Positions 10,488 to 41,910 of a stretch of 58,221 bases of DNA are shown in pieces. A model generated the notes under the pieces. It was not told where the DNA came from, ran no database searches, and was given only the letters and a program-made list of their open reading frames with translations. The stretch is taken from NCBI GenBank assembly GCA_025362675.1, contig JANYFN010000224.1, positions 1 to 58,221 of the forward strand, read 5' to 3'. Positions within the stretch are counted from its first letter, which is position 1, and each line of letters begins with the position of its first letter. Source of the DNA: Limisphaerales bacterium. Its GTDB lineage: Bacteria; Verrucomicrobiota; Verrucomicrobiia; Limisphaerales; UBA11358. The translations under genes were made by a program, and so were the position numbers.

Positions 10488-10503
10488 TCACGAGTTCTCG
10501 TGA
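10488..10503. promoter_or_regulatory. 7-2-7 palindromic operator, site A (TCACGAGTTCTCGTGA)
   Basis: Perfect 7-bp inverted arms. On the minus strand it is followed by TTTGTA-N17-CACATT towards the 10358 gene. Confidence 0.75.
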
Positions 10504-10562
10504 GAGCATCCACCGCCTTGGCCACCGTCGATTCCATGGCATCCAGGATTTTTTATAGGGTT

Positions 10563-10598
10563 GAGGCCGTCACAGGAACCCAAGCCTGCGACGGCCTC
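10563..10598 (-). other. Stem-loop just downstream of the 1932-aa gene (stabiliser or terminator)
   Basis: Minus strand GAGGCCGTCGCAGG-CTTGGGTT-CCTGTGACGGCCTC; 14-bp stem with one G-U; no U-tract. Confidence 0.6.
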
Positions 10599-10621
10599 TA
10601 CTTCAACCTAAGCTCGACCGC

Positions 10622-13600
10622 TTACGGATAAGTCAAGCGATAGAACACTGTCGGCTTGGTGCTATCCACCGTGATATTCGTGCTCGAAAGGGTTCCATCT
10701 GTTATGTAAATCCAGTTCGTGCGCAGTCCGACGGACAAGCTGTTCGTCTGCATCTGCAACCGCCAACCTTGACCCGCTGGCCACGAGAGGCTCAGAGTGT
10801 TTCCGCTGACACTGTTAGTCAGCTTTGCCGGACCGCTCGGACCAACTGACGTCGTGACCACGCTCAACAAACCGTTGGTGAAAGTGAAGGCTTTCCCGGA
10901 ACCAGGACTACCGACGATGCTCGCAAAGTTGCCCGTGTTCGTCGCCCCAGTTCCACTGAACAGTATGAAGGTCTGGCCAGCGGTGAACGTCCCGTTCGTG
11001 ACAATGTTCAACACACCACCATAAGTCACGGCGGCACCTAAGACGACACTGTTATTAGTTGGAGTGCTACCATTCACAACAAAGGTGTTGGTCGAACCAG
11101 CTAGGAGCGTCACGTTACCGTTTAAGGTGAGTTTGCCGCTGCCACTTACGCCCGGCGAAAGGATGCCGCCCGCAGTGTTAGTGACCAAACCGATAATCGA
11201 ACCGGTGCCGCCCAGCGTGCCGCCGCTATTGATCGTCACCGGGTTCGTGCCTGTGCCACTGGTAGCATTGATCAACAGCGTGCCGCCGCTGATGGTGGTT
11301 CCGCCGTTGTAGGTGTTCGCGCCCGAGAGCGTCAGCGTGCCTGTGCCAATTTTAGTAATGGCCAGCGTCTTTCCAGCGCCACCGTCCGCGATCGTTCCCG
11401 AATAGATGCTATTGGTGTTACCATCCCCAATGGTCAGCGTCGAGGCACCGGCGCTGGTGTTGCGAATGATGGCTCCCGTCACCGAGACGTTGCTCATCCC
11501 GTTAATAGTCTCGTTGAAGCCGTTCAGTTCTAAGATGGTCAAGTGATTAGCGTCAGCACCGTTAAAAACAACGTTGCCGTAACCAGGTCCATTGGGGATC
11601 ACACCCGAGGCGCCAAGCTTTAAGGTCGTCGAGGCTCCAGTGCGAGCTGCGCTAAAGTCATTACAGAATATATTGGCGTTGCCGGTGAAGTTATTACCCG
11701 TGTTGGAGAGTAAGAAATTCCGGGAATTAGCACCATTATTCATGCCGTAGAAGTCAATGCTGTAGGGACCGGTGATCTGACCGCTGATGGTAAAAGTGAC
11801 TCCTGAGGCGGCAAAGTTCCCGATCCGGGCGTTACCAGACAGCGTGATCGTGCCCGATAACGTGCTAGCCACATCACAGCGGACGGCACCGTCAAAGTTA
11901 TTACCATACGCGTCCGCTTCGGGATAGCCGATGCTACTGAGGTTCATGGGATTGCTTATAGTTGTGGCCGCGCTGATGTAAAGCTGGCCAGCGTTGGTTT
12001 GCACGATGGTGGTGCCGCCGCCCAAGTTAGCCCCAGATGATACAAAAATCCGTCCGTTGGTAATGATGGTTTGGCCGCTATAGGTGTTAATGGTGGAAGA
12101 CAGTGTGAGGTCGCTCTTGGTTGCACCGGATTTGAGCAGCCCGCCAGCACCAGTGATCGGTCCGGCTAAGTTCTGTCCAGAAGTGCTGCCGTATTCAAAA
12201 GTGGCACCCGCGTTGATATAGATTCCTCCCGTATTGGTGCCGCCGACACCCAATCTTCCGGCACCACCAATCGTCAGCTGGTTGCTATTGATGATCGTAT
12301 TGCCAGTGTAGGTATTATTGTTAGTCAGCGTGACGCTAGCCGAGCCGTTCTTGATGAGTGAACAAGTGCCGGTGATGCCAAAGTTACCGCCAATCGTGTA
12401 ATTGGTTTTGTTATTGTTAAATGCGACCTGAGTGGGTGTGACGTTGGCCACCGAAATGGCCACCAAGTTGTTGCTCTTGAGGGTGTCATCGAACAACACA
12501 CTGTTGTTGTCGATGTAGTCGGCAGCGATTCCGTTGGTGTTCCAATTTTTCGGACTGCCGAGGACATTGACACTCCATTCGCCGCTCAAGCCACCCGTCC
12601 AAACATACGGGTTGTAGAGCACTTGGATAGCGCCTGTTCCGGAAATATAACCTCCCGGGGTGGTGCTCTTGTAAACTCCGTTCGGCTGGCTGACGCCGTT
12701 CAGCACGAGTGCCAAGACCACATTTGTGCCGACGTAGTTTAGGTCCAGCACCGCTCCGCTGGCCACTCTCACCGTAGAGCTCAAGGCTAAGGCGGGCTGG
12801 GCGATAGATAGCGTGCCGGCATTGACCGTGGTATTTCCGGTGTAGGCGTTGGCGGACAGGGTCAGCGTGCCCGAGCCAACCTTGGTTAATGAACCGCTGC
12901 CGCTCAAAGTGCCGCTGTAAGTCGTGGTCGCATTGTTCTTGCCAATGGACACCGAGCCGACACCGAGTGACAAATTGCGCGAGCCGGTCAAAGCGCCGAT
13001 CACGCAGTCGCGATTATTCAAGCTGACCGAGCCAGCATCTGCGGCGTTCATGTCCAGCGTGGCGTTTTGCAGGGCATAGACATTGCCTATGCTTAACTTC
13101 CCGGTCCCCACCGAGCGGAAGGTTCCGCTAAAGGTGTTCGATCCGCTGATGGTGAGAGTGTTATTTGCAAAACTATTATATAAGATGTTGCCCGTGCCAC
13201 TGATAGAACCGCTGATGGTGCTGCCACCGAAAGCATCAACGGGGCTAGAACAAGTCAGCGTAAAGCCGTTCATATTCAAAGAACCAGACACAACCACGCC
13301 TACAGACTGATTGTTGTTGAGCGCACCGGTCGCAAACTGCACCAGAGCAGAATCCGCAGTCAGGGTGATCGGCCCAGACCACGTCAGCGTGTTATAGTTA
13401 TTAAACTGGGCTTCGGATTCCAGGATGCCGCCGTTTAAGGTGAGCGCATTAGTGATCGTGGCGTTGCCGGGTGCCGCTTCAATAATCGCCCCCGCATTCA
13501 AGGTCACGGACCCGGTGCCAAAGGGGTTAGCGCCGTTCCAGACGTTCAATTTGCCATTGCTGATGCCATTCACAATTGTGCCGCCGTTGTAAGTATTCGC

Positions 13601-16420
13601 GCCTTGCACCGTCAATCGCGAACTCGCTCCGTTACAGTAATAGGTGATACCGCCCGAACCGCTGATAGCTCCTGAAAGAAGATCACCAGTCAGCGAAACA
13701 TTGAAGCCTTCGTTAGGCCCATTACCTCCGGTGTTGGTTATTGAGATGCCGCCAGCGCCAATATTTATCGGACCAGAAAGAGTCACGCCCCCGGCACCAC
13801 CATCGCCGGACATTTGGAAACCGTTCGCTATGGTGATCGGCCCAGACCAGTTTTGAACGCTGAGGTTACCCCCGCCAATGCGCAAGTAACACGAGTCTAA
13901 GGACAACACATTCGTGAACGTGCAGGCGGCGGTATAAGAATTCGCTCCCGGTTTGAAGGTCACCGGCCCGGTGCCATATTTCGCCGTGGCACTTGGGAAT
14001 GAAAGGAAGGCACCTTGCTCAAAGGTGGTGCCACCGCTGTAGGTGTTGTTCGACGAATTCAACGTCAGGTTTCCCGCGAACACATCCAAGGCCAAAGCGC
14101 CGCCGGTGTTCTGAATGATGCCGCTAAAGGTGCTGTTGGCACCGCTAAGACCATTGGTCAAGGTCACCGCACTGCCGCTCGTGTTGTTCACGACACCGCT
14201 GCCGTTCAAGCCGTTGATCGCTTCCGGCTGGCCATTCAAATCAAGCAAACCGTTGACATACAAATTTCCCGTGCCCGCCCCATTCGGCAGCCCGTTCGCT
14301 GTCGTCATCTTCAGCGTGCTGCCGCTGGACACAGTCGTGTCGCCAGCATAACTCGCCGCACTGTTGAAATTTACTGTGCCTGCTCCTGTGATCGTCACGC
14401 CACTACCTCCACTCGCTCCGCCATTGATGTTCAACGTGCGATTAGTCGTAATATTCCATGACTGATCGGCCAAGACTTGAACTGGTGCAGTAATCGTTAG
14501 GTCTTGACTCGCGCTCGCGAGGTTGATGCCGAGCGCAGAAACTCCCAGATTATTTGCTCCACCAATAGTAACTGGGCCGGAGGGATTGAGGATGGTCACG
14601 CCCGCAATAAAAAAGTCAGCGTTGAGCACCGTGCTCAGGTTGGCCGTGGATAAGTTGTTGAACAACACCGGATCGCCGGGGTTGGGCGATGTCGTTGTAG
14701 TCCAGTTGCCGCCGGTCAGCCAGGAATTATCGCTCGCTCCAGTCCAAACATCAGCTGCGCCCACTACCAAATCCAAACCACCGAAACCATTGATAGCCAG
14801 TGAAACCGCACCAACCGCGCCGTTGCCCGTGAGCGTGACGGATGGCAGCGTGCCGGTGACTAGACCAATGTTGCCCGCCGTGGCAGCTTTTATAATCGTA
14901 TAATTTCCAGTTCCCAGAACCGCGCCGGGATTGTTGACAGTGATCACCGTGCTGCCTGACAACGTCATCGTTCCGTTGGTCTGAATGAACGGCGGATTCA
15001 CGCCGTCATAAGTCATCGAAATCGTGCCCGCGCTGAAATCGCTCGTGCCGTTAATCACCGCTCCCGCCGAACTGTTTTTGAATGTGCCGCCGTTCAGTGC
15101 GTAGTTTGGTGATTCGGCAGAAACATCAAACGTCGCCCCTCCCGCCAAAGTAATGTTTGCGCTCGCAAGTGCGCCCGCACTACCAATAACTAGCTTACCT
15201 GCACTGATAGTCGTGTTGCCGGTATAAGTTGCCGGTGCTCCGACTGAAACTGTGCCGCCACCAACGATGCTCAAAGCTGCACTGCCAGAGATGCCGCCAT
15301 TAGCCGCCACCGTGCCGTTATTGGTGACACTCCAAGTTTGGTTGGCACTAAGAACTAGCGGGGCGGTCATCGTCAAGCTCTGGCTAGCACCAATAAGATT
15401 GATGCCGCCTCCGATAGTCATCGGATTAGCCCCGCCGATGGAAACCGTAGCAGGCGCGTTGCTCAAGGTCAACGTTGACAAGTTATAGCTTAAGTCAGGA
15501 ACCGTGGACAGATTGGCCGTAGATAAATTATTGAAGGTGATGGCATCGCCCGAAAATGGAATGCTGGCCGGACTCCAGTTGCCCGCCGTGCCCCATGAAG
15601 TGTCGCTGCTACCCAACCAAGTCCGCGCGGCAACGCCGATGTCGCGGACGCTGATGGCGTTGAGTTGAACTTCAACACCGCTAGGGACGCTCGTGAGGGT
15701 AAACGTCTGGTTCGTGCTGTCCGCTACGAAAGTGCCAATCGTGAATTGCCCCACGCCGCCTAGCGCCTGAAAAACATTATAAGCTAGCGTGACCGTGTTA
15801 CCGCCGGTGCTGCTGACGCTTTCTTGCCGCGTGGCGAAAGTGCTGCGGCTATCGTCCGCCCAAATCTGCACCGCGTAGTCATGCCCCGTGATCAGGCCTT
15901 TCAACGTCACTGTCCCGGACGAGACGTTTCCATAAGCGCCGCCTTGAAGCACCGTTTGATAACTACTGCTTAAGCCCGAGAACGGAGCAGCCGTTGCCCC
16001 AAAAGAATTCGCAACCGAACCCGCAAAGGTAGAGCCGAAGGTGACGTTGCCCCACGCCGCAAAGCCGCTACCAGCGGTGAAGGTCGCACCGTTGACATTC
16101 GTGGTAGCCGTGGTGAGTCCACCCGCATAGGCATAAAGCGCGGTGCCGCTAGTATTCACATCCGTGTCAGCAACGATGTTCGCCGGAACCCCCCAAGTGA
16201 TGGCGGCGGCGGATGCTGCCGTCGGCGCAAGGACGGTCAATAATGTGGCGAGCGTGGCGACCACCAAAAGTCGCGTGCCAGTTCTGGCTTCGCGCGGGAA
16301 TCTGTCAACGAAGGACGCCAGCCGACAAAAGCTCACAAAACTGTGAGCATCAACAGATGGATTTCCACACATCAGCTTGTTAGCGGTTGAACGAATGATT
16401 TGCACAGATTTGGTTTTCAT
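10622..16420 (-). CDS. Giant secreted protein (1932 aa) with autotransporter-associated beta-strand repeats and FYRL tail; no beta-barrel
   Basis: Signal peptide ...LAPTAASA. Many GxGTLTLSGxNTYxGxTTIxxGTL repeats and WTG...W..xxNW modules. Ends TVFYRLTYP. Confidence 0.85.
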   Translation of the reverse strand: MKTKSVQIIRSTANKLMCGNPSVDAHSFVSFCRLASFVDRFPREARTGTRLLVVATLATLLTVLAPTAASAAAITWGVPANIVADTDVNTSGTALYAYAGGLTTATTNVNGATFTAGSGFAAWGNVTFGSTFAGSVANSFGATAAPFSGLSSSYQTVLQGGAYGNVSSGTVTLKGLITGHDYAVQIWADDSRSTFATRQESVSSTGGNTVTLAYNVFQALGGVGQFTIGTFVADSTNQTFTLTSVPSGVEVQLNAISVRDIGVAARTWLGSSDTSWGTAGNWSPASIPFSGDAITFNNLSTANLSTVPDLSYNLSTLTLSNAPATVSIGGANPMTIGGGINLIGASQSLTMTAPLVLSANQTWSVTNNGTVAANGGISGSAALSIVGGGTVSVGAPATYTGNTTISAGKLVIGSAGALASANITLAGGATFDVSAESPNYALNGGTFKNSSAGAVINGTSDFSAGTISMTYDGVNPPFIQTNGTMTLSGSTVITVNNPGAVLGTGNYTIIKAATAGNIGLVTGTLPSVTLTGNGAVGAVSLAINGFGGLDLVVGAADVWTGASDNSWLTGGNWTTTTSPNPGDPVLFNNLSTANLSTVLNADFFIAGVTILNPSGPVTIGGANNLGVSALGINLASASQDLTITAPVQVLADQSWNITTNRTLNINGGASGGSGVTITGAGTVNFNSAASYAGDTTVSSGSTLKMTTANGLPNGAGTGNLYVNGLLDLNGQPEAINGLNGSGVVNNTSGSAVTLTNGLSGANSTFSGIIQNTGGALALDVFAGNLTLNSSNNTYSGGTTFEQGAFLSFPSATAKYGTGPVTFKPGANSYTAACTFTNVLSLDSCYLRIGGGNLSVQNWSGPITIANGFQMSGDGGAGGVTLSGPINIGAGGISITNTGGNGPNEGFNVSLTGDLLSGAISGSGGITYYCNGASSRLTVQGANTYNGGTIVNGISNGKLNVWNGANPFGTGSVTLNAGAIIEAAPGNATITNALTLNGGILESEAQFNNYNTLTWSGPITLTADSALVQFATGALNNNQSVGVVVSGSLNMNGFTLTCSSPVDAFGGSTISGSISGTGNILYNSFANNTLTISGSNTFSGTFRSVGTGKLSIGNVYALQNATLDMNAADAGSVSLNNRDCVIGALTGSRNLSLGVGSVSIGKNNATTTYSGTLSGSGSLTKVGSGTLTLSANAYTGNTTVNAGTLSIAQPALALSSTVRVASGAVLDLNYVGTNVVLALVLNGVSQPNGVYKSTTPGGYISGTGAIQVLYNPYVWTGGLSGEWSVNVLGSPKNWNTNGIAADYIDNNSVLFDDTLKSNNLVAISVANVTPTQVAFNNNKTNYTIGGNFGITGTCSLIKNGSASVTLTNNNTYTGNTIINSNQLTIGGAGRLGVGGTNTGGIYINAGATFEYGSTSGQNLAGPITGAGGLLKSGATKSDLTLSSTINTYSGQTIITNGRIFVSSGANLGGGTTIVQTNAGQLYISAATTISNPMNLSSIGYPEADAYGNNFDGAVRCDVASTLSGTITLSGNARIGNFAASGVTFTISGQITGPYSIDFYGMNNGANSRNFLLSNTGNNFTGNANIFCNDFSAARTGASTTLKLGASGVIPNGPGYGNVVFNGADANHLTILELNGFNETINGMSNVSVTGAIIRNTSAGASTLTIGDGNTNSIYSGTIADGGAGKTLAITKIGTGTLTLSGANTYNGGTTISGGTLLINATSGTGTNPVTINSGGTLGGTGSIIGLVTNTAGGILSPGVSGSGKLTLNGNVTLLAGSTNTFVVNGSTPTNNSVVLGAAVTYGGVLNIVTNGTFTAGQTFILFSGTGATNTGNFASIVGSPGSGKAFTFTNGLLSVVTTSVGPSGPAKLTNSVSGNTLSLSWPAGQGWRLQMQTNSLSVGLRTNWIYITDGTLSSTNITVDSTKPTVFYRLTYP

Positions 16421-16588
16421 ACGGATTTATGTAGCGTTGTATTTGTATTCAGTTAAATGCCTGGATTGTCACAAGCGTTGCTCTTTCAACTCACACTAAA
16501 TAATGCTTCTAATTCGCCAATTTTTGTTGGTTTAAAGAACTTTGTTCAGGGTCACGGAAAACATATATCAGCAATTGAATCTAGCCTA

Positions 16589-16604
16589 TCACGAGTTCTC
16601 GTTA
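16589..16604. promoter_or_regulatory. 7-2-7 operator, site B (TCACGAGTTCTCGTTA)
   Basis: One mismatch to site A. Minus strand: site-TAGGCT-N17-TATGTT towards the 16420 gene. Confidence 0.72.
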
Positions 16605-16723
16605 TGCCTGTCACACTGCCGATTTCGCCAAACCGCACGGTCGAATGCCCGAGTTGAGACTTGGGTTTTGATCGTTGGTCGTGATGTCATAAAGTATTCT
16701 TTATGCGAGAGGCTGCTTCCCAC

Positions 16724-17335
16724 TCAACGAATATAGACCCTCTTAAGGAGCCTTATTCCTGCCGCACCCACCGCGCAGGAGGCAAAAATCACCATCGCCA
16801 CATTCACTGGTTCGGGCACCGGTGTTATGTCCAGACTCCAGCCGGTCAAGGTAGCCTGTCCGCCGCCGGGTGATTCATCGGCAAAATATAATGTCCAAGT
16901 GCCATCGGCTACTGAACCATTAAAATTAGCGAGCGATCCCGCAGCCTGATAGGTGCCGGTAAATACGGAGCCAGCGGTCTCGGCAGTAGTTTGGATTGAA
17001 CCAGCAGTAGCAGCATCGGACAAAGTGACATTCAAACCTGACCCAGCGTAGCCAAACGGATTGCCAGTAGTAACTCCCGGACGATTTAACAGCATTACCA
17101 AGGTTCCATTCGGGGCGACTAGATAAGAATATAAATCACCGTTGAAACCGCCCGATAGTTGCAAGTCCACGGTAAGACCGGAAACCGTTGCGCCGGGCGC
17201 AGCCTGGTCATAAGATCCGGCAAAAGAAACTCCTACCAGGTTACCATCTGGTATGGTGCCTGTTTGATAGAGTGATGCTTTGGCATGAAAAGCTAAAGCC
17301 AGCGTTAAGTAGAGCCGCAATAGTTTTGATTTCAT
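16724..17335 (-). CDS. PEP-CTERM protein with proprotein-convertase P-domain-like beta-sandwich
   Basis: Signal peptide from ATG 17335. NGDLYSYLVAPNGTLVMLLNRPG...GTWTLYFAD...GWSLDIT. C-terminus VPEP + TM helix + RLLKR. Confidence 0.85.
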   Translation of the reverse strand: MKSKLLRLYLTLALAFHAKASLYQTGTIPDGNLVGVSFAGSYDQAAPGATVSGLTVDLQLSGGFNGDLYSYLVAPNGTLVMLLNRPGVTTGNPFGYAGSGLNVTLSDAATAGSIQTTAETAGSVFTGTYQAAGSLANFNGSVADGTWTLYFADESPGGGQATLTGWSLDITPVPEPVNVAMVIFASCAVGAAGIRLLKRVYIR

Positions 17336-17380
17336 TTCAAAAATAGAGTTGGTTTGTTCAAGTAGTTTGAGAAAGGTATC

Positions 17381-17444
17381 GGGTGGTGATGCCAACCCCT
17401 AACATCACCACCCATCCCCAAATGGTGGAACCCAAAACCACCAT
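17381..17444 (-). other. Two tandem stem-loops downstream of the frameshifted giant gene
   Basis: GGGTGGTGATG/CATCACCACCC (17381-17413) and ATGGTGG/CCACCAT (17422-17444). Minus-strand loops TTAGGGGTTGG and TTTTGGGTT. Confidence 0.55.
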
Positions 17445-17473
17445 AAAGTTTTTGTTTATGCTCGTCACGGCAC

Positions 17474-21001: not shown

Positions 21002-21045
21002 GGTATTGTTGGCTGGATTTTTCCATACATTGACCGTGCAATTGC

Positions 21046-25362: not shown

Positions 25363-25476
25363 TTCTCACTAGTTGAGAATCTGTAATTTTTTAGCGGCAC
25401 ATATTTTTATAGAGTTTCTATAACTTTCTTCTGCGGGATACAGTGGAAATATACGACAAGGAACCAACCCTGAAAA

Positions 25477-25492
25477 TCACGAGAACTCGGGA
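25477..25492. promoter_or_regulatory. 7-2-7 operator, site C (TCACGAGAACTCGGGA)
   Basis: Minus strand: site-TTTTCA-N17-TATATT (25448-25453) towards the giant gene. Confidence 0.75.
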
Positions 25493-25663: not shown

Positions 25664-25679
25664 TCACGAGTTCTCGGGG
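25664..25679. promoter_or_regulatory. 7-2-7 operator, site D (TCACGAGTTCTCGGGG)
   Basis: Plus strand: site-TGGCAC-N16-TAACAT (25702-25707) towards the sulfatase operon. Confidence 0.7.
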
Positions 25680-25884
25680 TGGCACGACTGCCCAAACTCG
25701 ATAACATTATTTGCATGAACAAACCCCAGACAAGCTACGTTTCGGCTCGTTATCCAACGGAAATTTTTAAAGGAGATTTCGACGCCGTTAAACGACAGCT
25801 AGAATTCTCTGCGGTTGTATCCGCAAAAGATTTGTGTTAGCCCATTTGGAATGAAGCCATACATTTCTACTCTTTTTAACAACT

Positions 25885-27303: not shown

Positions 27304-27310
27304 ATAACTA

Positions 27311-28867: not shown

Positions 28868-28875
28868 AATCTTCC

Positions 28876-30345: not shown

Positions 30346-30376
30346 GCGCGATTACAATGCGCTCCATGTAATCGGG

Positions 30377-31999: not shown

Positions 32000-32021
32000 T
32001 GGCCGCAACAGGTCTATCGAA

Positions 32022-32711
32022 ATGAAAAATCTAAAACAATTATTCGTTTGCTTGCTGGCGTTCACGGCTTGGTCGGTGGCGAGTGCGACGGAACAAAAAA
32101 TTTACCACATTCTGCCGGTGGGCGATTCCATTACTGAAGGCGGGGGGAACTTTTCTAATTATCGCTACCCGCTTTTGAAAAAATTGACGGCGGCGGGCTA
32201 CCGGGTCGAGTTCACCGGCTCACGCACGAGCGCGTCGCCGGTCGGTCCACTGCGTCACGAAGGTTACGGCGGAAAAAACGCGGAGTTTCTAGCGGGTGTT
32301 TTGGAGAACTATTTCCGCACGAACTCGGCGGACATCGTGTTGATTCATTCCGGACACAATCACACGAACACGGAAGCTCCGGTGCGCGGCATCGTTGCGG
32401 CCACCGAGGCGTTGATTCGCACGGCGCGCAATGCGAATCCGCACGTCATCGTATTGGTGGCACAGGTAATCCCGAGCGGCAAGTTGCCAAAATATGAATA
32501 CATCCCGGAATTGAATGTGGAACTCGCCAAACTCCCCGCGCGATTGACAACACAGGAATCGCCGGTCATTGGCGTGAACATGGCGGACGGTTTTAATTGG
32601 CAGACGGATACGATTAGTGACCACGTTCACCCGAATTCGCTCGGCGCAGAAAAGATGGCAGCGAAGTGGTTTGCAGCGTTGACGAATGCGCTCGCCGCGC
32701 CGCATAGCTGA
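32022..32711 (+). CDS. SGNH/GDSL hydrolase (probable carbohydrate esterase)
   Basis: LPVGDSIT, HEGYGG, GHN, DHVHP; signal peptide. Confidence 0.85.
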   Translation: MKNLKQLFVCLLAFTAWSVASATEQKIYHILPVGDSITEGGGNFSNYRYPLLKKLTAAGYRVEFTGSRTSASPVGPLRHEGYGGKNAEFLAGVLENYFRTNSADIVLIHSGHNHTNTEAPVRGIVAATEALIRTARNANPHVIVLVAQVIPSGKLPKYEYIPELNVELAKLPARLTTQESPVIGVNMADGFNWQTDTISDHVHPNSLGAEKMAAKWFAALTNALAAPHS

Positions 32712-32754
32712 TTGGTGACACCAAAAAATTATTCTCAATAAATTTGCAAACAAT

Positions 32755-34677
32755 ATGAACCGCAGACAATTCATAGGCCGAGCCGGCAGCACCTTGTTGC
32801 TCTGCTTGGCAAGCCCGTCCGCCTTCGCCCAAGCCAAATCACAAACGAATGGCGAATTTATTTTTTTGGAGGCCGAACAGTTTGCCGATCTCGGCGGCTG
32901 GGATTTGGATCAGCAATCCATGGATCAGATGGGGTCGCCCTATCTGCTCGCGCATGGGCTGGGTATTCCGGTCAAGGATGCGGTGACGACGGTTAACTTT
33001 CCATCGCCTGGCAAATATCGCGTCTGGGTGCGCACGCGGGATTGGGTCGCACCGTGGAAAGCGCCGGGTGCGCCGGGAAAATTTCAATTACTGCTCGACG
33101 GCACGTCATTGCAGGAAACGTTCGGAACCAAGAGCGCCGTCTGGCACTGGCACGATGGCGGGGTTGTGAACGTCGGTGCAAAAGCGACGGTGGCTTTGCA
33201 CGACTTGACTGGCTTTGAAGGTCGCTGTGAAGCGATTCTCTTTTGTAAAGATACCGCTTTTGAGCCTACCAACGATTTGGCCGCGCTCACAAAATTCCGT
33301 CGTGCCCTCTTAGGTTTGCCAGAGCATCCGACCGAGGGTGGGGAGTTTGACTTGGTGGTGATCGGCGGCGGTTTGGCTGGCACCTGCGCCGCGCTCTCCG
33401 CAGCGCGTAATGGATTGCGCGTTGCGCTCGTTCAGGATCGTCCGGTGCTCGGCGGAAATTGCAGTTCGGAAGTGCGGGTTTGGGCGGAAGGCCACACGAA
33501 GCAGCAGCCGTATCCGCACATCGGCGAGATCGTGGATGAAATCTGTCCGCAAAATCCGCCGCCGGGAAATAAAAATGCGAAGGGCTATGATCTTTATGAT
33601 GATGCCCGCAAAACCACAACGGTGCTCGCCGAAGCCCGCATTACCTTGCTGGCCGAGCAGCGTGCCGTTGCCGTGGAAATGACGGGACGTCGTATCTACG
33701 CCGTGATCATCCAGCATATCCGCACCGCGCGACAGGTGCGCTTGCGGGCGAAATTTTTTGCCGATTGCACGGGCGACGCCACCATTGGTTTTCTCGCCGG
33801 GGCGGATTTTGAAATGTCCCGCGCCGGAAAAATGGGCACCAGCAATCTCTGGAATGTGCTCGATGCCGACGATGAGAAGCAGGTGCTCCAATGCGAGTGC
33901 AAAGACAAGGACGCGTTGTCGATGTGTCTCATCACGCACAAAGTTGAGCAACCGTTTCCGCGCTGCCCGTGGGCGCTGGACTTGACGGACAAACCGTTTC
34001 CCGGCCGCAAAAATGCGAAAGGCCAGTGGGTAGAAAAAAACGCTTTACCCAACCTTGGCGGATGGTTTTGGGAAAGCGGCTTTGACCAAGATCCCACGAC
34101 GGATATCGAACGCATCCGCGACTTAAATTTTCGCGCGATGTATGGCGCTTGGGATGCGCTGAAAAATGTGGATAAGCTTTACCCGAATCACCGTCTTGGC
34201 TGGGCGGCGTTCATCGCCGGCAAACGCGAATCACGTCGCCTGCTCGGCGACATCATCCTCACCGCGGATGATTTCCGGACGCAACGCAAGTTTCCCGATG
34301 GAGCGTTCCCGTGCTCGTGGCACATTGATCTTCATTCGCCCGACCCGAGATTTTCCAAAGGGCTGGACGACGAGGCATTTATCGCCCGTTCTTCGGAAGG
34401 AAAGAATTACTCATATCAAGGCCCCTACTGGGCTCCCTACCGCTGCCTTTACAGCCGCAATATTGGAAACCTTTTCATGGCGGGCCGTGATATCAGTGTC
34501 TCCAGCGATGGGCTTGGTCCGGTGCGCGTGATGCGAACCTGCGGCATGATGGGGGAAATTGTCGGCAAAGCTGTGGCTATTTGTGTGAGCCGTCAGACAA
34601 CCCCGCGCGGGGTATTCCAAGAACATTTTCCGGAGCTGGTAGAAAAAATGCACCAGCCCGGCCAGACTCGGATTTAA
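32755..34677 (+). CDS. Tat-exported FAD-dependent oxidoreductase (FAD_oxidored family)
   Basis: MNRRQF twin-Arg leader; DLVVIGGGLAG, LGGNCSSE, DCTGDA, GKRESRRL, NLFMAGR. Confidence 0.85.
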   Translation: MNRRQFIGRAGSTLLLCLASPSAFAQAKSQTNGEFIFLEAEQFADLGGWDLDQQSMDQMGSPYLLAHGLGIPVKDAVTTVNFPSPGKYRVWVRTRDWVAPWKAPGAPGKFQLLLDGTSLQETFGTKSAVWHWHDGGVVNVGAKATVALHDLTGFEGRCEAILFCKDTAFEPTNDLAALTKFRRALLGLPEHPTEGGEFDLVVIGGGLAGTCAALSAARNGLRVALVQDRPVLGGNCSSEVRVWAEGHTKQQPYPHIGEIVDEICPQNPPPGNKNAKGYDLYDDARKTTTVLAEARITLLAEQRAVAVEMTGRRIYAVIIQHIRTARQVRLRAKFFADCTGDATIGFLAGADFEMSRAGKMGTSNLWNVLDADDEKQVLQCECKDKDALSMCLITHKVEQPFPRCPWALDLTDKPFPGRKNAKGQWVEKNALPNLGGWFWESGFDQDPTTDIERIRDLNFRAMYGAWDALKNVDKLYPNHRLGWAAFIAGKRESRRLLGDIILTADDFRTQRKFPDGAFPCSWHIDLHSPDPRFSKGLDDEAFIARSSEGKNYSYQGPYWAPYRCLYSRNIGNLFMAGRDISVSSDGLGPVRVMRTCGMMGEIVGKAVAICVSRQTTPRGVFQEHFPELVEKMHQPGQTRI

Positions 34678-34698
34678 CCAAGACCAGATAAATTAAAA

Positions 34699-37600
34699 GT
34701 GAATACACAAAATCCATGGTCACAGAATGAAACCACTGGCAAGTCACGCCGGTATTTCCTAAAAACTTCAGCCGCGACCATGCTGGGACTAGCTTTCTCC
34801 CGACTGCCGGTGATGGCTGGGCCGTTCACGCGCGAGGATTTTGACCACCTCGTTCCCGCCGACAAAAAACTTTCGCCGGACTGGGTGAAATCTCTTTTCG
34901 AGCGCGGCACGCCGGAAGTGTTGCGTGGCGGCGAACTCGAATTTGTCGGGATGCCCGTCGGCGGCATCGGCGCAGGGCAGTTGTATCTTGGCGGCGACGG
35001 ACGGCTGTGGCATTGGGATATTTTCAACCAATTCATTTTCACCGGCGCAGAGCATTACGCCAAGCCGATGATTCCCACTTCGCCGCTCGTGCAAAAATTT
35101 TCACTGAAACTCGGCGACAAAATTATTTCGCTCGAACGTGACGGTTTCTCCGATGTGAGTTTTCGCGGCGAATATCCGATTGGCGTTGTGAGCTACGCCG
35201 CTGCGAACGTGCCGCTCGCCGTGAAGCTCGAGGCATTTTCACCGTTCATTCCACTGAACACAGATGACTCAAGTTTACCCGCAACCATTTTTCAATTCAC
35301 CGTGCGGAACACTTCTGCCTCGCCGTTGGAAACGACTTTGAACGGCGAACTTGAAAACGGCGTGTGCCTGCATCATCGCAACCATCGCGGAGTTTTGAAA
35401 AATAATTTCGTGAAAGCAAAGGGCGCAACCATGTTGGTTTGTTCAGCTGAAGCCGATGGCAAATCCACCCAGCCAGCGCGCCCGGAAATTATTTTTGAAG
35501 ATTGGAATCGCGCCAACTACGACGGTTGGAAAGTGGAAGGCACGGCGTTTGGCAAAGATGCAATTAAGAAATCCGAAATGCCATCTTATCAAGGTGACGT
35601 TGGCGGCGAAACAGCGCGCGTGGTGAATTCCCACGCCACCGCGCCTGGTGATTCCATCGGGGCGAAAGACGGCGCGACGGGCAAACTCATCAGCCGCCAG
35701 TTTGTCATCGAAAGAAATTTCATCGCGTTCTGGATCGGCGGCGGCAAGGCCGAGGGTGAAGACCGACTCGGCTTGTCGCTGATCGTGGATGGCAAGCGCG
35801 TCATCGCAGCTTCAGGACTGAATAAAAATGAGCTGACGTTGCAATACTTTGACGTTGCCGCCTACGCTGGAAAAACCGCGCACCTCGAAATCGTTGACGA
35901 CAAGGCCAGCCCTTGGGTCAACGTCGGCGTTGGCAAAATCACTTTCACCGATACACGCGGCAAGACCGAGCCGCTGGAAAAACTTTCCGACTTCGGCACG
36001 ATGGCGCTCGGGTTGCTGGGCGATGCAGACGAAACCAGCGGTGACAAATCCGCTGCGTTTAGTGAAAAAATCATCGGCTCGCTTGGCCGCAAGTTGACGC
36101 TCGCTGCGGGCGAATCGAAGACGGTGACCTTCGTGCTCGCGTGGTATTTTCCGAATCTTTCGATCAACAAATCGTTCACAGATTGCGGACGCTTTTACGC
36201 CACAAATTTTTCCTCGGCGCAGGTCGTCGCGGAATATGTCGTGGAAAATTTTTCGCGCCTCGAAGGCCAGACGAAGTTGTGGCGCGATACTTGGTATGAC
36301 TCCACCCTGCCATTTTGGTTTCTCGACCGGACGTTTTTGAACACGTCTATCCTCGCCACGTCCACCTGCTACCGGCTCGCGAACGGACGTTTTTATGGCT
36401 GGGAAGGCGTGGGCGACTGCGCGGGAACTTGCGGCCACGTTTATCTCTACGCGCAAGCCATCGCGCGGCTCTTTCCAGAGTTGGAACGCGACCTCCGGGA
36501 GCGCACGGATTTCGGGCTGGCGCAAATGCCCGACGGTGCAATTCATTTTCGCGGCGAGTTTAATAACATCCCGGCGGTGGACGCGCAGAGCGGTTATGTT
36601 CTGCGAGCATTGCGTGAACATCAGATGTCGGCGGACGATAAATTTCTGCGCCAGCTCTGGCCGAAAATAAAACTGGCGATGGAGTGGCTCATCAAAAAAG
36701 ACGGCAATGGTGACGGCCTCATCGAGAGCAACCAACACAACACGCTCGACACCGATTGGTTTGGAAAAGTTGCGTGGTTGAGCGGCCTCTATCTCGCGGC
36801 GTTGGCGGCGGCGACCCAGATGGCGGATGAAGTCGGCGACACCGAATTCGCCGCGCACTGCCGGAAAATTTTCAAGGCGGGTCAAAAAAATTTACCCGCC
36901 GAACTTTTCGACGGGGAATATTTCAGCAACAAGATTGACCTGAAACATCTCGACTCAATCAACTCCGGCACGGGCTGCGAGATTGATCAAGTGTTCGGCC
37001 AGAGTTGGGCGTTTCAAATCGGTTTGCCACGCGTGCTGCCGCCAAAGCAGACGGTGTCTGCGCTAAAATCTTTGTGGCGCTACAATTTTTCACCAGACGC
37101 GGGCGACTATCATAAAAAATTAGGGCCGGGCCGCTGGTATGCCATGCCGGGCGAGGCGGGCCTGCTGATGTGTTCGTTCCCGCGCAGCGACTGGGATTTC
37201 AAGCAAGCCAGCGGCAAAGGCAAGGCGAGTTGGGCGGCGGGTTATTTCAACGAATGCATGAACGGCTTTGAGCATCAGGTCGCCGGCCACATGATTTGGG
37301 AAGGAATGTTGCTGGAGGGTCTCGCCATCGAGCGCACCGTGCATGACCGCTACGGCGCAGCGCGGCGAAATCCGTGGAACGAGATCGAGTGCGGCGATCA
37401 TTACGCGCGCAGCATGGCGAGCTACGGCGTGTATCTCGCTGCGTGCGGTTTCGAAAATCACGGCCCAAAGCAGCACATCGGTTTCGCGCCGAAGTTGACG
37501 CCGGAGAATTTCAAGTGCGCGTTCACTAGCGCCGAGGGCTGGGGAAGTTTCGCGCAAAAGCTCGACGGCGGAAAACTGACGGCGGAGATTTCCGTGCGCT

Positions 37601-37779
37601 GGGGCAAGTTGAATTTGAAAACCATTACGCTGGCAAGCGACGCGCATTTGGCAAAAGTGTTGCACGCCGGACAACCGGTTACAGCGAGCGTGATGCGCGA
37701 GGGAAAACGCATTCTGATCACCATGGAAAATCCTGTTAAAATTTCTGCCGGAGAAAATTTGGAAATCACTCTCACCTAG
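34699..37779 (+). CDS. GH116-family glycoside hydrolase with inserted beta-sandwich domain, Tat leader
   Basis: SRRYFLK leader; GMPVGGIGAG, FSPFIP, GWEG, QHNTLD, NPWNEIECGDHYARSMAS. Confidence 0.82.
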   Translation: MNTQNPWSQNETTGKSRRYFLKTSAATMLGLAFSRLPVMAGPFTREDFDHLVPADKKLSPDWVKSLFERGTPEVLRGGELEFVGMPVGGIGAGQLYLGGDGRLWHWDIFNQFIFTGAEHYAKPMIPTSPLVQKFSLKLGDKIISLERDGFSDVSFRGEYPIGVVSYAAANVPLAVKLEAFSPFIPLNTDDSSLPATIFQFTVRNTSASPLETTLNGELENGVCLHHRNHRGVLKNNFVKAKGATMLVCSAEADGKSTQPARPEIIFEDWNRANYDGWKVEGTAFGKDAIKKSEMPSYQGDVGGETARVVNSHATAPGDSIGAKDGATGKLISRQFVIERNFIAFWIGGGKAEGEDRLGLSLIVDGKRVIAASGLNKNELTLQYFDVAAYAGKTAHLEIVDDKASPWVNVGVGKITFTDTRGKTEPLEKLSDFGTMALGLLGDADETSGDKSAAFSEKIIGSLGRKLTLAAGESKTVTFVLAWYFPNLSINKSFTDCGRFYATNFSSAQVVAEYVVENFSRLEGQTKLWRDTWYDSTLPFWFLDRTFLNTSILATSTCYRLANGRFYGWEGVGDCAGTCGHVYLYAQAIARLFPELERDLRERTDFGLAQMPDGAIHFRGEFNNIPAVDAQSGYVLRALREHQMSADDKFLRQLWPKIKLAMEWLIKKDGNGDGLIESNQHNTLDTDWFGKVAWLSGLYLAALAAATQMADEVGDTEFAAHCRKIFKAGQKNLPAELFDGEYFSNKIDLKHLDSINSGTGCEIDQVFGQSWAFQIGLPRVLPPKQTVSALKSLWRYNFSPDAGDYHKKLGPGRWYAMPGEAGLLMCSFPRSDWDFKQASGKGKASWAAGYFNECMNGFEHQVAGHMIWEGMLLEGLAIERTVHDRYGAARRNPWNEIECGDHYARSMASYGVYLAACGFENHGPKQHIGFAPKLTPENFKCAFTSAEGWGSFAQKLDGGKLTAEISVRWGKLNLKTITLASDAHLAKVLHAGQPVTASVMREGKRILITMENPVKISAGENLEITLT

Positions 37780-37803
37780 AACTTAAAAATACATTTACAA
37801 ATT

Positions 37804-39357
37804 ATGACTAAAACTGCGCTTAAATGTTGTCTGTTATCCATTGGAATAATTCTCGCGTTGGGTGGCTCGGCTCGCGCGAATGTAACGTTGCCCGGAATTT
37901 TCTCCGACCACATGGTGTTGCAAAAAAATGTTGCCGTGCCGGTCTGGGGGTGGGCCGACCCCGGCGAAAAAATCACCGTCACCATTGCGGGACAAACCCG
38001 GACGGCGACGGCGGATACTGCGGGCAATTGGAAACTCAAGCTCGGTAAACTTTCTGCCGACAGCCCGTTGACCATGACGGTCACAGGCCACAACACCATC
38101 GTCATTCAGGACGTGTTGGTGGGGGAAGTCTGGCTGGCTTCGGGACAATCCAACATGCAGTTGTCCGTAAACGATGTGACGAACGCGTGGCAGGAAAAAG
38201 CGTCGGCAAAATTTCCGCAGATTCGAATGTTCACCGTGGGACGCGTTCCCGCTACCACACCGCAGACAAACTGCGGAGGCAAGTGGTTGGTCTGCGCTCC
38301 TGAAACCGTCGGCGGTTTCTCGGCGGCGGCCTATTTCTTTGGTCGGGAGCTACACCAAAAACTAACCGTGCCGGTGGGCTTGATTCATTCTTCGTGGGGC
38401 GGCACGCCCATCGAGACTTGGACAAGTATGCCGAAAATGGAAGCCAAGCCGGAATTGGCACCGGTGTTAAAAAATTGGCAAGCCACGCTGTATCCGTATG
38501 ACGAAGAAAAGGCGCAGGCACAATATGTTCAAATGCTAGAAAACTGGACGAACAACGCGGCAAAGCTAAAAGCGGACGGAAAAACCGTTCCGCCCCGGCC
38601 ACAAAAAAAAGGTGATCCGCGGCTCGACAAAAATTATCCCGCGAATCTTTTCAACGGCATGATTGCGCCCATCATCCCTTACGCGATTCGCGGCGCGATT
38701 TGGTATCAGGGCGAAAATAATGCCGCGAACGACTTGGCTAAACTCTATTCCATCCAGCTACAAAGCATGATTCAAGATTGGCGGCAACGCTGGGACGAAG
38801 GTGATTTTCCGTTCGCTTGGGTGCAATTGCCGAACTTTCATCCGCGAACTAAAAATCCGGTTGAAACCAATTACAACAACTGGTGCGTTGTTCGCGAAGA
38901 GATGCTAAAAACGCTCGCCGTAAAAAATACCGGCATGGCGATCACGGTTGATGTGGGCGAGGCAAATAATATTCATCCAAAAAACAAACAGGCGGTTGGT
39001 TACCGACTGGCGTTGTGGGCGCTTGCCAAAGTGTATGGCAAGGATATTCCCTACTCCGGTCCGCTGCCTGACGGACAAAAAATCAAAGGCGACAAAATTA
39101 TTTTGTCGTTCAGGCACACCGACGGCGGATTAGTTACCAAAGCTGGAGACTTGAAAGGTTTTGCCATTGCGGGCGAAGATCATCATTGGATTGCGGCCAA
39201 CGCTCGCATAGAGGGCAAGAAGGTCATCGTCTCCAGCCCGGAAGTGAAATCACCAGCGGCGGTGCGCTACGCTTGGGCGGCCAATCCCGACTGCAATCTT
39301 TTCAACGGTGCGGGTCTGCCCGCCTCGCCTTTCCGAACCGATGGCTGGGAGCGATAG
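37804..39357 (+). CDS. Sialate O-acetylesterase-like (SASA) carbohydrate esterase
   Basis: FSDHMVLQ, GEVWLASGQSNM, WGGT, WYQGE, IHPKNK, PASPFRTD. Confidence 0.9.
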   Translation: MTKTALKCCLLSIGIILALGGSARANVTLPGIFSDHMVLQKNVAVPVWGWADPGEKITVTIAGQTRTATADTAGNWKLKLGKLSADSPLTMTVTGHNTIVIQDVLVGEVWLASGQSNMQLSVNDVTNAWQEKASAKFPQIRMFTVGRVPATTPQTNCGGKWLVCAPETVGGFSAAAYFFGRELHQKLTVPVGLIHSSWGGTPIETWTSMPKMEAKPELAPVLKNWQATLYPYDEEKAQAQYVQMLENWTNNAAKLKADGKTVPPRPQKKGDPRLDKNYPANLFNGMIAPIIPYAIRGAIWYQGENNAANDLAKLYSIQLQSMIQDWRQRWDEGDFPFAWVQLPNFHPRTKNPVETNYNNWCVVREEMLKTLAVKNTGMAITVDVGEANNIHPKNKQAVGYRLALWALAKVYGKDIPYSGPLPDGQKIKGDKIILSFRHTDGGLVTKAGDLKGFAIAGEDHHWIAANARIEGKKVIVSSPEVKSPAAVRYAWAANPDCNLFNGAGLPASPFRTDGWER

Positions 39358-39449
39358 GCACGATGCTAAAATCCGAAATAGAATTCGGATGATTGGATGT
39401 GATTGCATCTTGATAGAGCCATAACGTTGGGTAGCGGTATTTATGCTCA

Positions 39450-39465
39450 CCACGAATTCTCGTGA
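39450..39465. promoter_or_regulatory. 7-2-7 operator, site E (CCACGAATTCTCGTGA)
   Basis: Plus strand: site-TTGTGC-N16-CAAAAT; ATG 42 nt after the site end. Confidence 0.7.
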
Positions 39466-39506
39466 TTGTGCAATTTTTGAACCATTGCAAAATATGGATC
39501 CTCCGA

Positions 39507-40319
39507 ATGAAAAAAATTGCCATTGCCCACAGCCGTCATGGCTCCAGTGCTGCCTTCACGCTCATTGAGCTGCTGGTAGTCATTGCCATCATCGCTATCC
39601 TTGCGGCCATGCTGCTGCCTGCGCTGGCCAAGGCAAAGGAGAAAGCTAAGACCATCTCCTGTCTGAACAATCTCAAGCAGATTGGTCTTTTTCTGCAACT
39701 CTACACCGACGATAGCAGTGATGTTTTTCCAGCCTGTCGCAAACAAGATTCGACGCTGCCGACGATGGATGATTGGTGGGGTAATTATTTAGGCAAGTAT
39801 TCGGCGGGAAATTCAAATCTCTTTCACTGTCCCGTGCTAACGGATACTCGTAATCAATATACCGCCAATTTCAAATGGAGTTGGACGGGCGTTGCCAACC
39901 CCGGCGATCGAATCGGTTATTCGGCGAATGTTTTTTTCTTGTTCTACCCGGCCCCGGTAATTCAACCGCAAGTAACGGTTACCGTCGGCGGGGTATCTTA
40001 TACGACTCAATATAAATTCAAGAGAACGGCGATTCAGCGCCCTTGTGACTGCTTAGTTATTGGTGACGCTGAAGGTTGGTGGAGCATGAGTTCTTACTGG
40101 CCGAACGGAGTGATGGATGGGTCTAATCCGCTTTACGAAGGCATTGCCTGCCGACATGGTGGCTTTGGGAGTAAAGGTATCAATGGCGGTCAGGGCGTAG
40201 TGGTTTTTGCTGATAGTCACTCCGAAGCGCGTAAAGATGCGAACATCAACCCACAGACCGGCAATAAGCTGAAAAACTCAAGATACTGGGATCCGCTCCT
40301 GCGCGCCGGCGATCAATAA
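39507..40319 (+). CDS. Prepilin-type N-terminal cleavage/methylation protein (DUF1559-like)
   Basis: ATG 39507 [25 protein letters not shown]; CLNNLKQ; FHCP; RH...VFADSH. Confidence 0.9.
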
Positions 40320-40334
40320 AATTTACCCACTTCC

Positions 40335-40868
40335 ATGAAAACTAAAATCATCACCACTTGCCTACTCTTGTCGCTTATGACTTCAGCGCTATCCGCCGCC
40401 GATAACTGGCGGGAAAAATTGCAGCAAGAATTGCCGCTGCTCGGCCATCGCAACTGGATTGTCGTCGCCGACGCGGCATATCCGTGGCAAACCGCACCGG
40501 GCATCGAGACGATTTACGTCACGGCCGACCAGCTTGAAGTCGTCAAAGGCGTCATCGCGGAACTCGCCAAGACCAAGCATGTCAAGCCGACGATTTATAC
40601 TGACGCCGAGATGAAATTCGTTGCCGAGAAAAACTCACCTGGCATCGGCGCCTATCGTGATGGTTTGCAAAAAATTCTAACAAACCAGCCAGCGAAAGTT
40701 TTGCCGCACGAACAGATCATCGGCAAGCTGGATGAAGCAGGTAAGACGTTCAAGGTGCTGCTCATCAAGACGTCGCTAACCAAGCCCTACACCTCGGTTT
40801 TCTTCCAGTTAGAATGCGGTTATTGGAATGCCGATTCGGAAGCTGAATTGCGCCGGGCAATGAAGTGA
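40335..40868 (+). CDS. RbsD/FucU-like protein (putative sugar mutarotase) with signal peptide
   Basis: LGHRNWIVVADAAYP resembles the RbsD/FucU GHxDxIxIADAxxP motif; C-terminal IKTSLTKPY. Leader MKTKIITTCLLLSLMTSALSA. Confidence 0.6.
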   Translation: MKTKIITTCLLLSLMTSALSAADNWREKLQQELPLLGHRNWIVVADAAYPWQTAPGIETIYVTADQLEVVKGVIAELAKTKHVKPTIYTDAEMKFVAEKNSPGIGAYRDGLQKILTNQPAKVLPHEQIIGKLDEAGKTFKVLLIKTSLTKPYTSVFFQLECGYWNADSEAELRRAMK

Positions 40869-40967
40869 CACAAATTATCGGAATAATTAAGCCTTTATGA
40901 TATCTCGCCATAGCCCGCTATTGCCTTTGTTAGTGATGGTTTGCGGGACGGCGCAGGCAGCCTGCAA

Positions 40968-40990
40968 GAGACACTAGGGTTAGCTGTCTC
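40968..40990 (+). other. Small stem-loop with GGGT loop
   Basis: GAGACA-CTA-GGGT-TAG-C-TGTCTC, preceded by GCAGG-cag-CCTGC. Confidence 0.35.
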
Positions 40991-41056
40991 AATTGATTCA
41001 ACCAAGGATAATGTATTCCACCGTTTGGTTTATCCGGGCACAGACCAGCCATTTCA

Positions 41057-41072
41057 CCACGAGTTCTCGGGA
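41057..41072. promoter_or_regulatory. 7-2-7 operator, site F (CCACGAGTTCTCGGGA)
   Basis: Plus strand: site-TTGAAT-N16-CAAATT; ATG 43 nt after the site end. Confidence 0.72.
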
Positions 41073-41114
41073 TTGAATAATTTAAAAAATCCTTCAAATT
41101 CTAGATATAGCCGT

Positions 41115-41906: not shown

Positions 41907-41910
41907 TTAT

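Follow-up and report, generated by a model that had tools for sequence, protein, structure and literature searches.

The 58,221-nt window analysed here, contig JANYFN010000224.1 of the Limisphaerales bacterium assembly GCA_025362675.1, raises the question of which protein reads a 16-bp palindrome that recurs upstream of genes for surface proteins, pilin-like proteins and glycan-degrading enzymes, and to what effect. The first-pass annotation of the window had listed six copies of this palindrome and proposed that they bind one dimeric transcription factor that coordinates these genes. Our analysis suggests that the palindrome is likely to be the operator of a NarL-type response regulator whose gene lies in the same locus and which acts as an activator. 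Taken by itself, the assignment of the palindrome to this regulator is highly probable, and activation rather than repression is fairly likely.

A pattern search of the window with TCACGAGWWCTCGTGA, allowing for up to three mismatches, returned exactly six matches, located at positions 10488, 16589, 25477, 25664, 39450 and 41057 and having 0, 1, 1, 2, 2 and 2 mismatches, respectively. In 100 dinucleotide-preserving shuffles of the window, the mean number of matches was 0.52 and the maximum three; six matches were reached in 0 of the 100. Palindrome 1 (TCACGAGTTCTCGTGA, 10488-10503) is a perfect copy and serves a minus-strand operon with its start codon at 10358, at a distance of 129 nt. Palindrome 2 (TCACGAGTTCTCGTTA, 16589-16604, one mismatch) is located 168 nt upstream of the start codon at 16420 of the gene for a 1,932-aa PATR-repeat surface protein. 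Palindromes 3 (TCACGAGAACTCGGGA, 25477-25492, one mismatch) and 4 (TCACGAGTTCTCGGGG, 25664-25679, two mismatches) occupy the left and right halves of a divergent region, in which they serve the operon that runs from 25362 to 16724 (gap of 114 nt) and the sulfatase/glycosidase operon that starts at 25885 (gap of 205 nt), respectively. Palindromes 5 (CCACGAATTCTCGTGA, 39450-39465) and 6 (CCACGAGTTCTCGGGA, 41057-41072), with two mismatches each, precede the ATG codons of two pilin-like genes at 39507 and 41115 by 41 and 42 nt.

The last two sites overlap the longest possible open reading frames (ORFs), which start from a GTG at 39462 and a TTG at 40941. With translation from the in-frame ATG codons at 39507 and 41115, the products have normal prepilin leaders that end in AFTLIE, and sites 39450 and 41057 are therefore also read as intergenic. 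The coordinates and sequences of the six copies, their limit of two mismatches and their intergenic placement upstream of gene starts were all borne out as first described, and Pfam matches confirmed the gene classes served, which are three N_methyl pilin-like genes, two PATR giants and the sulfatase operon.

The source genome (G000; 4.31 Mb in 306 contigs, here given C-numbers) contains eight sites with at most two mismatches, as compared to three for the reversed pattern, which was used as the control for motif counts. Six of the eight sites are those in the window, one is located at C203:12200 and one at C214:62142; the latter lies inside an ORF and is probably a chance match. Contig C203 joins the left end of the window. 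Its last 122 bases (12878-12999) are identical to window positions 1-122, and the reading frame of a sensor kinase gene, within which the assembly break falls, is continuous across the join. The left part of C203 consists of housekeeping genes, and the locus therefore begins near C203:7643. Seven of the eight genome sites are found within the joined locus of 71.1 kb, which corresponds to 1.65% of the genome. The genome-wide total alone is unremarkable; the signal is the clustering of the sites. With a weight matrix built from the seven locus sites, these same sites scored 22.7-26.9 and the next best site in the genome 18.7. The original claim that the motif defines a regulon thus stands with regard to the shared sites, but the scope is strictly local and not genome-wide, a locality that had been missed.

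The gene interrupted by the contig break encodes a sensor histidine kinase on the minus strand. Its N-terminal, periplasmic part is located at positions 1-2300 of the window (ORF 3-2300), with Pfam matches to Reg_prop (6.4e-40) and Y_Y_Y (1.1e-16), and it continues on C203 with HisKA_3 (1.6e-09) and HATPase_c (7.1e-11). These four domains are also present in a contiguous kinase orthologue of 1,029 aa, which lacks both a receiver (REC) and a helix-turn-helix (HTH) domain. The periplasmic sensor matches solved sensor domains of Bacteroides hybrid two-component systems (HTCS), with E-values of 3.2e-49 for 4a2l, which we take to be the heparin sensor BT4663, and 5.5e-43 for 3v9f.

The next gene after the kinase (C203:11410-12108, minus strand) encodes a NarL/LuxR-type response regulator of 232 aa, with Pfam matches to Response_reg (2.9e-23, residues 26-138) and GerE (7.7e-17, residues 171-224). 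The regulator aligns over its full length to VraR (5hev, 2.8e-29, residues 25-231), NarL (1a04, 2.6e-24) and DevR. Its receiver motif VVLLDVGLP is aligned with VILMDLVME of VraR, in which the Asp is presumably the phospho-acceptor. The protein thus combines the features of the NarL/FixJ family, with a REC domain carrying an Asp at the acceptor position, a C-terminal GerE HTH and an adjacent HisKA_3 kinase. The kinase ORF stops 69 nt before the regulator gene, and the seventh palindrome (C203:12200) is located within the last kinase codons, 91 nt upstream of the regulator ATG. No DNA-binding domain besides that of the regulator was found by Pfam among the 39 longer ORFs of the joined locus. The regulator gene lies beyond position 1 of the window, on the adjoining contig, and the candidate factor was therefore invisible to the first-pass annotation.

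We compared 163 genomes of the genus, using at least 78% identity as the threshold for a regulator orthologue. These tallies include genome G117, which has a paralogue of 54% identity and zero sites and forms the basis of no claim. An orthologue was identified in 10 of the 163 genomes, G000 included, at 78-92% identity, and the next best proteins showed at most 65% identity. When at most one mismatch was allowed, the 10 orthologue genomes contained 32 sites, with at least two in every genome. The corresponding number for the other 153 genomes was 10 sites, with two sites in one genome only, and the reversed control gave five sites in all 163 genomes. At up to two mismatches, there were 68 sites in the 10 orthologue genomes as compared to 15 in the control, whereas 39 other relatives had 43 sites as compared to 43. 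Genome G091 contains two copies of TCACGAATACTCGTGA (C14:2607 and C17:4740) and no regulator orthologue at the 78% threshold; these sites may represent a diverged sister system.

The palindrome is also conserved in position. Upstream of the regulator, TCACGAAATCTCGTGA is identical in G000 and in all nine orthologous loci, in which it begins 108-133 nt before the projected regulator start. In genome G024, the locus is syntenic with that of G000 at 70-79% DNA identity, and alignments of the two show the palindrome as a conserved island in three intergenic regions that are otherwise 46%, 37% and 27% identical. The partners in G024 are C58:1095 for palindrome 4 (46%), C178:4828 for palindrome 5 (37%) and C254:1174 for palindrome 1 (27%). 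At palindrome 4, a -10-like hexamer has been kept too. A fourth alignment, upstream of the regulator, was 71% identical overall and does not count as a clean intergenic footprint, since the palindrome is there part of the kinase coding sequence.

In eight of the other orthologue genomes, 56 sites were examined, and for 45 of these a gene starts within -70 to +350 nt. As many as 39 of the 45 adjoin a homologue of a gene in the G000 locus (E<1e-10), 31 of them at no less than 50% identity over at least 200 aa. The genes beside these foreign sites are the regulator (7 sites), the 1,932-aa giant (6), the first sulfatase (4), and a pilin-like gene, the 1,538-aa glycosidase and the acetylesterase (3 each). 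In regulator-bearing genomes, the motif is thus found upstream of orthologues, as is characteristic of a conserved local regulon. The first-pass annotation had named conservation upstream of orthologues as a check on its proposal, and such conservation was found, with 31 of the 56 foreign sites beside orthologues of genes in the G000 locus.

The base counts of 68 instances (136 half-sites) were T111, C129, A101 or C34, C136, G134, A132 and G113 or A21 at successive half-site positions. Each half-site follows the consensus T-C-(A/c)-C-G-A-(G/a)-W, and the two heptamers face each other as an inverted repeat across a 2-bp spacer. The arms vary independently of each other in the 68 sites, both at positions 3/14 (Fisher p 0.53, with 28 of the 68 sites unpaired) and at positions 1/16 (p 0.67), although this test is somewhat limited by the selection of sites with at most two mismatches. 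The element thus has the layout of a 7-2-7 operator, in which two inverted heptamers are separated by 2 bp and each half-site is recognised on its own.

Promoter-like hexamers are found at a nearly constant distance from the palindrome. In 41 of the 45 unambiguous gene-facing flanks, an nAnnnT hexamer follows the palindrome at 22 or 23 nt, as compared to 7 of 45 and 5 of 45 for the far-side flanks. Among all 69 gene-side flanks, it is seen at offset 23 in 40 cases and at offset 22 in 18. Immediately past the palindrome there are six bases with the consensus TTGgCA, followed by 17 nt and then by nATATT. For palindrome 1, the gene-side flank consists of TTTGTA (10482-10487, -35-like), 17 nt and CACATT (10459-10464, -10-like). 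The corresponding elements are TAGGCT, 17 nt and TATGTT (16560-16565) for palindrome 2, and TTTTCA, 17 nt and TATATT (25448-25453) for palindrome 3. On the plus strand, they are TGGCAC (25680-25685), 16 nt and TAACAT (25702-25707) for palindrome 4, TTGTGC (39466-39471), 16 nt and CAAAAT (39488-39493) for palindrome 5, and TTGAAT (41073-41078), 16 nt and CAAATT (41095-41100) for palindrome 6. If these hexamers represent -35 and -10 elements, the palindrome would span about -51 to -36 and be centred near -43.5.

The gap of 41 nt between palindrome 5 and the ATG of its pilin-like gene recurs in loci L148 and L162. At both pilin-like genes the ATG is located only 41-42 nt past the palindrome (39466-39506 and 41073-41114), a gap that recurs in orthologues, also in L169. 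If the -10 assignment is right, the leaders of the pilin-like genes would be about 6 nt long and their messages nearly leaderless.

Based on these observations, we propose that an oligosaccharide from a fucose-rich, sulfated glycan would activate the membrane histidine kinase, the periplasmic part of which is predicted to form a double beta-propeller followed by Y_Y_Y and the cytoplasmic part to consist of HisKA_3 and HATPase_c. The phosphorylated regulator, as the only factor acting at these sites, would bind the seven palindromes as a dimer. Set against the -35 element of a sigma-70-type promoter, this dimer would recruit RNA polymerase and transcription would start downstream of the -10-like hexamer. 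The predicted regulon includes the six units in the window, of which three are led by pilin-like genes, two by PATR giants and one is the sulfatase/fucosidase operon. It would also include the regulator's own gene, transcribed from an internal promoter in the last kinase codons, giving positive feedback. Activation is preferred mainly because the register is fixed within one base across dozens of promoters, as contact with the polymerase requires. The idea that surface proteins, pilins and enzymes are coordinated by one dimeric transcription factor was supported by every test that could be run: the arms are independent, the sites form conserved islands, the hexamer register is fixed, and near-perfect sites track the genomes with one NarL-type regulator, since 10 of 10 such genomes but only 1 of the 153 others have two sites or more.

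Paralogues of the regulator (53-65% identity) carry palindromes in the same position that are related to the one described here, for example TCCCGCAAACGCGGGA and TCCCGCAAATGCGGGG. These are of the TC(A/C)CG-N6-CG(G/T)GA type and are located in the last kinase codons, about 115 nt upstream of the regulators (G000:C57:1061 and loci L079, L085, L078 and L076). The recognition helix reads TVDSH in the orthologues, as compared to TVDTH or TVDDY in the paralogues, with changes at two residues.

An alternative to activation is that the same NarL-type regulator serves as a repressor, or has a dual role, by blocking contacts with the UP-element or the -35 until a glycan signal removes it. The core elements near the site are reasonably good, with a fairly good -35-like TTGgCA followed by 17 nt and nATATT, such that the promoters may fire without an activator, which leaves room for repression. 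Moreover, NarL represses at some of the 7-2-7 sites covered in PMC4549865, for example that of frdA. However, in the same account the frdA site at which NarL represses covers the transcription start (-4/+6) instead of lying upstream of the -35. The palindromes described here never overlap the -10 or the presumed start, and 41 of 45 promoters keep the register to within one base; such a rigid register is needed for polymerase contact but not for occlusion. Positive feedback on the regulator gene also suits an inducible catabolic locus, and we consider repression or a dual role to be unlikely. Even less likely is that another transcription factor, encoded elsewhere or by a small ORF outside the Pfam scan, binds the palindromes, with the two-component system as a bystander that travels with the locus. 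Linkage and co-occurrence do not distinguish the regulator from other elements always co-inherited with the locus, and any factor that always travelled with it would give the same pattern of regulator and motif. The Pfam scan covered the 39 longer ORFs, leaving out those shorter than 100 aa and several longer ones that overlap the main genes. On the other hand, the regulator is the sole DNA-binding protein among the scanned ORFs, the 7-2-7 inverted repeat is a known site type of its family as far as described in PMC4549865, and its own promoter carries the site in 10 of 10 genomes. Furthermore, the paralogous regulators have related but different palindromes (TCCCGC... types) in the same place together with a different recognition helix.

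It is very improbable that the palindrome arose by chance, represents a short mobile repeat or works as a nucleic-acid structure, be it a terminator or a hairpin in RNA or DNA. The sequence can be drawn as a 6-bp stem and a 4-nt loop, and for one of the six sites the fold is better than for shuffled sequences (z -2.73). However, the RNA folds of the six sites range from -4.9 to -9.6 kcal/mol with z-scores of -2.73 to +0.58, such that five of the six are no better than shuffles, and the arms show no compensatory changes. There is no T-run after the palindromes, and these precede promoter-like hexamers instead of lying within transcripts. An RNA family or hairpin was rejected on the basis of 0 matches in Rfam and the weak folds, and a repeat or mobile element since the five intergenic regions share no extended repeat, the palindrome itself being their sole common feature. 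Chance is countered by the finding of six copies in 0 of 100 shuffles.

Several observations nevertheless weigh against the reading of the palindrome as an activating operator of the NarL-type regulator. Near-identical regulator promoters account for nine of the 45 flanks and inflate the promoter consensus somewhat, and the centre at -43.5 depends on hexamers recognised by eye and on counting. The palindrome upstream of the regulator is located in the last kinase codons, and coding constraint could partly explain its conservation. All 10 orthologue genomes come from one genus, perhaps from one clade, such that the contrast between 10 and 153 genomes may reflect few independent events, and the counts for each of the 10 genomes include its own regulator-linked site. 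The region at 47-58 kb of the window encodes related enzymes but has no palindrome with a score of 12 or higher. Local clustering was not shown for the paralogue motif TCCCGCGAATGCGGGG (upstream of the regulator on C57, a contig of 3.5 kb), a GC-rich pattern with a high background that gave 24 matches in G000 as compared to 9 for the control, scattered over 24 contigs. The same pattern gave 25-45 matches in five other genomes, as compared to 12-32 for the control. Any 16-mer gives several matches with two mismatches in 4.3 Mb, which makes a de novo count of the paralogue motif uninformative.

Among known systems, the proposed operator resembles the sites of NarL, whose output domains dimerise on inverted heptamers of the 7-2-7 type (PMC4549865). 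As in E. coli NarL/NarP (napF, yeaR), a REC and GerE regulator with a HisKA_3 kinase as its partner is combined with a 16-bp 7-2-7 operator. The activating NarL sites listed there are located at -40 to -49 (napF) and -38 to -47 (yeaR), and the placement at about -51 to -36 predicted here from the hexamers is similar to this activating geometry of -38 to -49 (PMC4549865). Unlike the TACCCCT type of half-site given in PMC4549865, the half-site is here TCACGAG. The sensor is of a beta-propeller/Y_Y_Y glycan type and not a nitrate sensor, and the regulon is a single glycan-degradation locus and not a set of respiration genes scattered over the genome. We suggest that the operator is of the NarL-family 7-2-7 type with a new half-site. 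The motif had not been recognised in the first-pass annotation; the half-site sequence is indeed new, but the class to which it belongs is known.

The Bacteroides HTCS have a homologous periplasmic sensor and a regulator that is likewise local to one glycan locus. In the HTCS, kinase, receiver and AraC-type HTH are present in one polypeptide, and binding is predicted at direct repeats separated by long spacers (PMC3878776). In contrast, the kinase and the regulator are here separate proteins, the output domain is of the GerE/LuxR type and the site is an inverted repeat. SusC/SusD genes were not found in the window. Despite its beta-propeller/Y_Y_Y sensor, the system would not be classified as an HTCS, since the fusion is lacking. 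In BguR of the Flavobacteriia, as presented in a preprint, a beta-propeller and Y_Y_Y sensor encoded in a glycan locus is coupled directly to a GerE domain. The site of BguR was predicted from intergenic regions, and the portion of the preprint that describes the protein lists no kinase, ATPase or receiver domain. Unlike in that description of BguR, a phosphorelay is predicted to operate here between the sensor and the GerE domain. Judged from domain composition, the system thus appears to be a third wiring of the HTCS-type sensor, via a classical NarL-type pair.

The best structural relative of the regulator is VraR, and a HisKA_3 kinase is the partner also in the VraSR/LiaSR systems. These systems sense cell-envelope stress via small intramembrane sensors, whereas the sensor described here has about 800 periplasmic residues. 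Cellvibrio AbfS/AbfR was considered as the closest relative and dropped, since AbfS is a PAS-domain sensor (PDB 2VA0) and not a propeller, as stated in the part of PMC11078701 that concerns it. In a search of one literature collection, supplementary files excluded, neither the motif nor a pair of a propeller kinase and a NarL-type regulator was found described in Verrucomicrobia.

The genes served by the palindromes were identified from Pfam matches. The operon downstream of palindrome 1 (2439-10358, minus strand) encodes a pilin-like protein (9498-10358), a 1,538-aa glycosidase with ricin and PATR domains (4813-9429), a GH29 fucosidase (3355-4812) and another pilin-like protein (2439-3335). 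The gaps between these genes are short, no weight-matrix sites with a score of 12 or higher were found in them, and the operon probably reads on into the kinase gene. Palindrome 2 is followed by the 1,932-aa PATR-repeat protein gene (10622-16420, minus strand). Between the stop of this gene and palindrome 1, at 10560-10601, there is a 17-nt inverted repeat that is 88% complementary and has an 8-nt loop. It is followed by an A-run and not a T-run on the coding strand, and is thus no canonical terminator. The operon of palindrome 3 (16724-25362, minus strand) encodes a 1,438-aa PATR protein, a 1,175-aa Ig/MBG/cadherin-like protein and a 223-aa P-domain protein. The operon of palindrome 4 (25885-39357, plus strand) encodes three sulfatases, a GH29 enzyme, a GDSL esterase, an FAD oxidoreductase, a GH116-like enzyme and a SASA-type acetylesterase.

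On the plus strand, palindrome 5 precedes a pilin-like gene and a gene of the RbsD/FucU family (39507-40868), and palindrome 6 a pilin-like gene and a gene for a 702-aa protein with a weak GH42 match only (41115-44019). The RbsD/FucU-family protein (40335-40868) has 177 aa. The N-terminus of its orthologue in G024 is hydrophobic and signal-like, which would put a fucose mutarotase-like protein outside the cytoplasm. Altogether, the locus contains five N_methyl pilin-like genes (2439-3335, 9498-10358, 39507-40319, 41115-41906 and 55736-56581). Two of the five proteins showed weak matches to DUF1559 (SBP_bac_10), below the Pfam cut-off (E 9e-4 and 7e-4). The co-regulation with enzymes suggests that the pilin-like proteins act in substrate capture. 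The window as a whole holds GH29, GH95, GH106 and GH116-like enzymes, esterases and further sulfatases, and the locus is predicted from this gene content to target a fucose-rich, sulfated glycan.

The regulated and unregulated parts of the locus are separated by a gene (44318-46315) for a 665-aa protein of the PF10136 'site-specific recombinase' family (E 1.2e-195). The GC content of this stretch is 0.58-0.60, as compared to about 0.50-0.52 on either side. The protein is rich in hydrophobic segments, and the family name may be misleading. Genes for a GH95 enzyme, a GH29-melibiase fusion, a GH106 enzyme, a pilin-like protein and a LamG protein follow in the right part of the window (47179-58221), all on the minus strand, and the promoter of this part may be located beyond the contig end.

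Pairs of this kind are not restricted to the locus described here. G000 encodes about nine Y_Y_Y proteins, at least six of which are followed by a gene for a NarL-type regulator. Among 80 regulator-homologue loci in public genomes, which span many phyla including Gemmatimonadota, Rhodothermales and Ignavibacteria, 58 have a Y_Y_Y kinase gene on the same strand directly upstream. Because of these pairs and loci, and because of the paralogue palindromes with their helix changes, we tentatively raise the possibility that a propeller kinase, a separate NarL-type regulator and a 7-2-7 site set against the -35 constitute a general type of glycan-locus regulator in Verrucomicrobia subdivision 3 and several phyla, although we hold this to be rather doubtful. 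If true, each paralogue would address its own locus via a readable helix-to-half-site code, and the N_methyl/DUF1559 pilin-like proteins would be glycan-capture components, in the role that SusC/SusD-type proteins have in Bacteroidota.

The finding leaves the understanding of how NarL-type regulators work unchanged. To our knowledge, the regulation of glycan-degrading clusters outside Bacteroidota is almost unstudied, and we know of no cultured representatives of these freshwater Verrucomicrobia. The locus presents a complete testable circuit, in which a candidate sensor and a regulator are joined by a precise 16-bp operator, a promoter geometry and a predicted seven-promoter regulon that is conserved in ten genomes. 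This circuit could be rebuilt in a laboratory host, and the sensor domain could be used to seek the inducing oligosaccharide. The proposed regulon would link pseudopilin-like N_methyl/DUF1559 proteins and giant PATR-repeat proteins, two abundant classes of unknown function, to the use of glycans.

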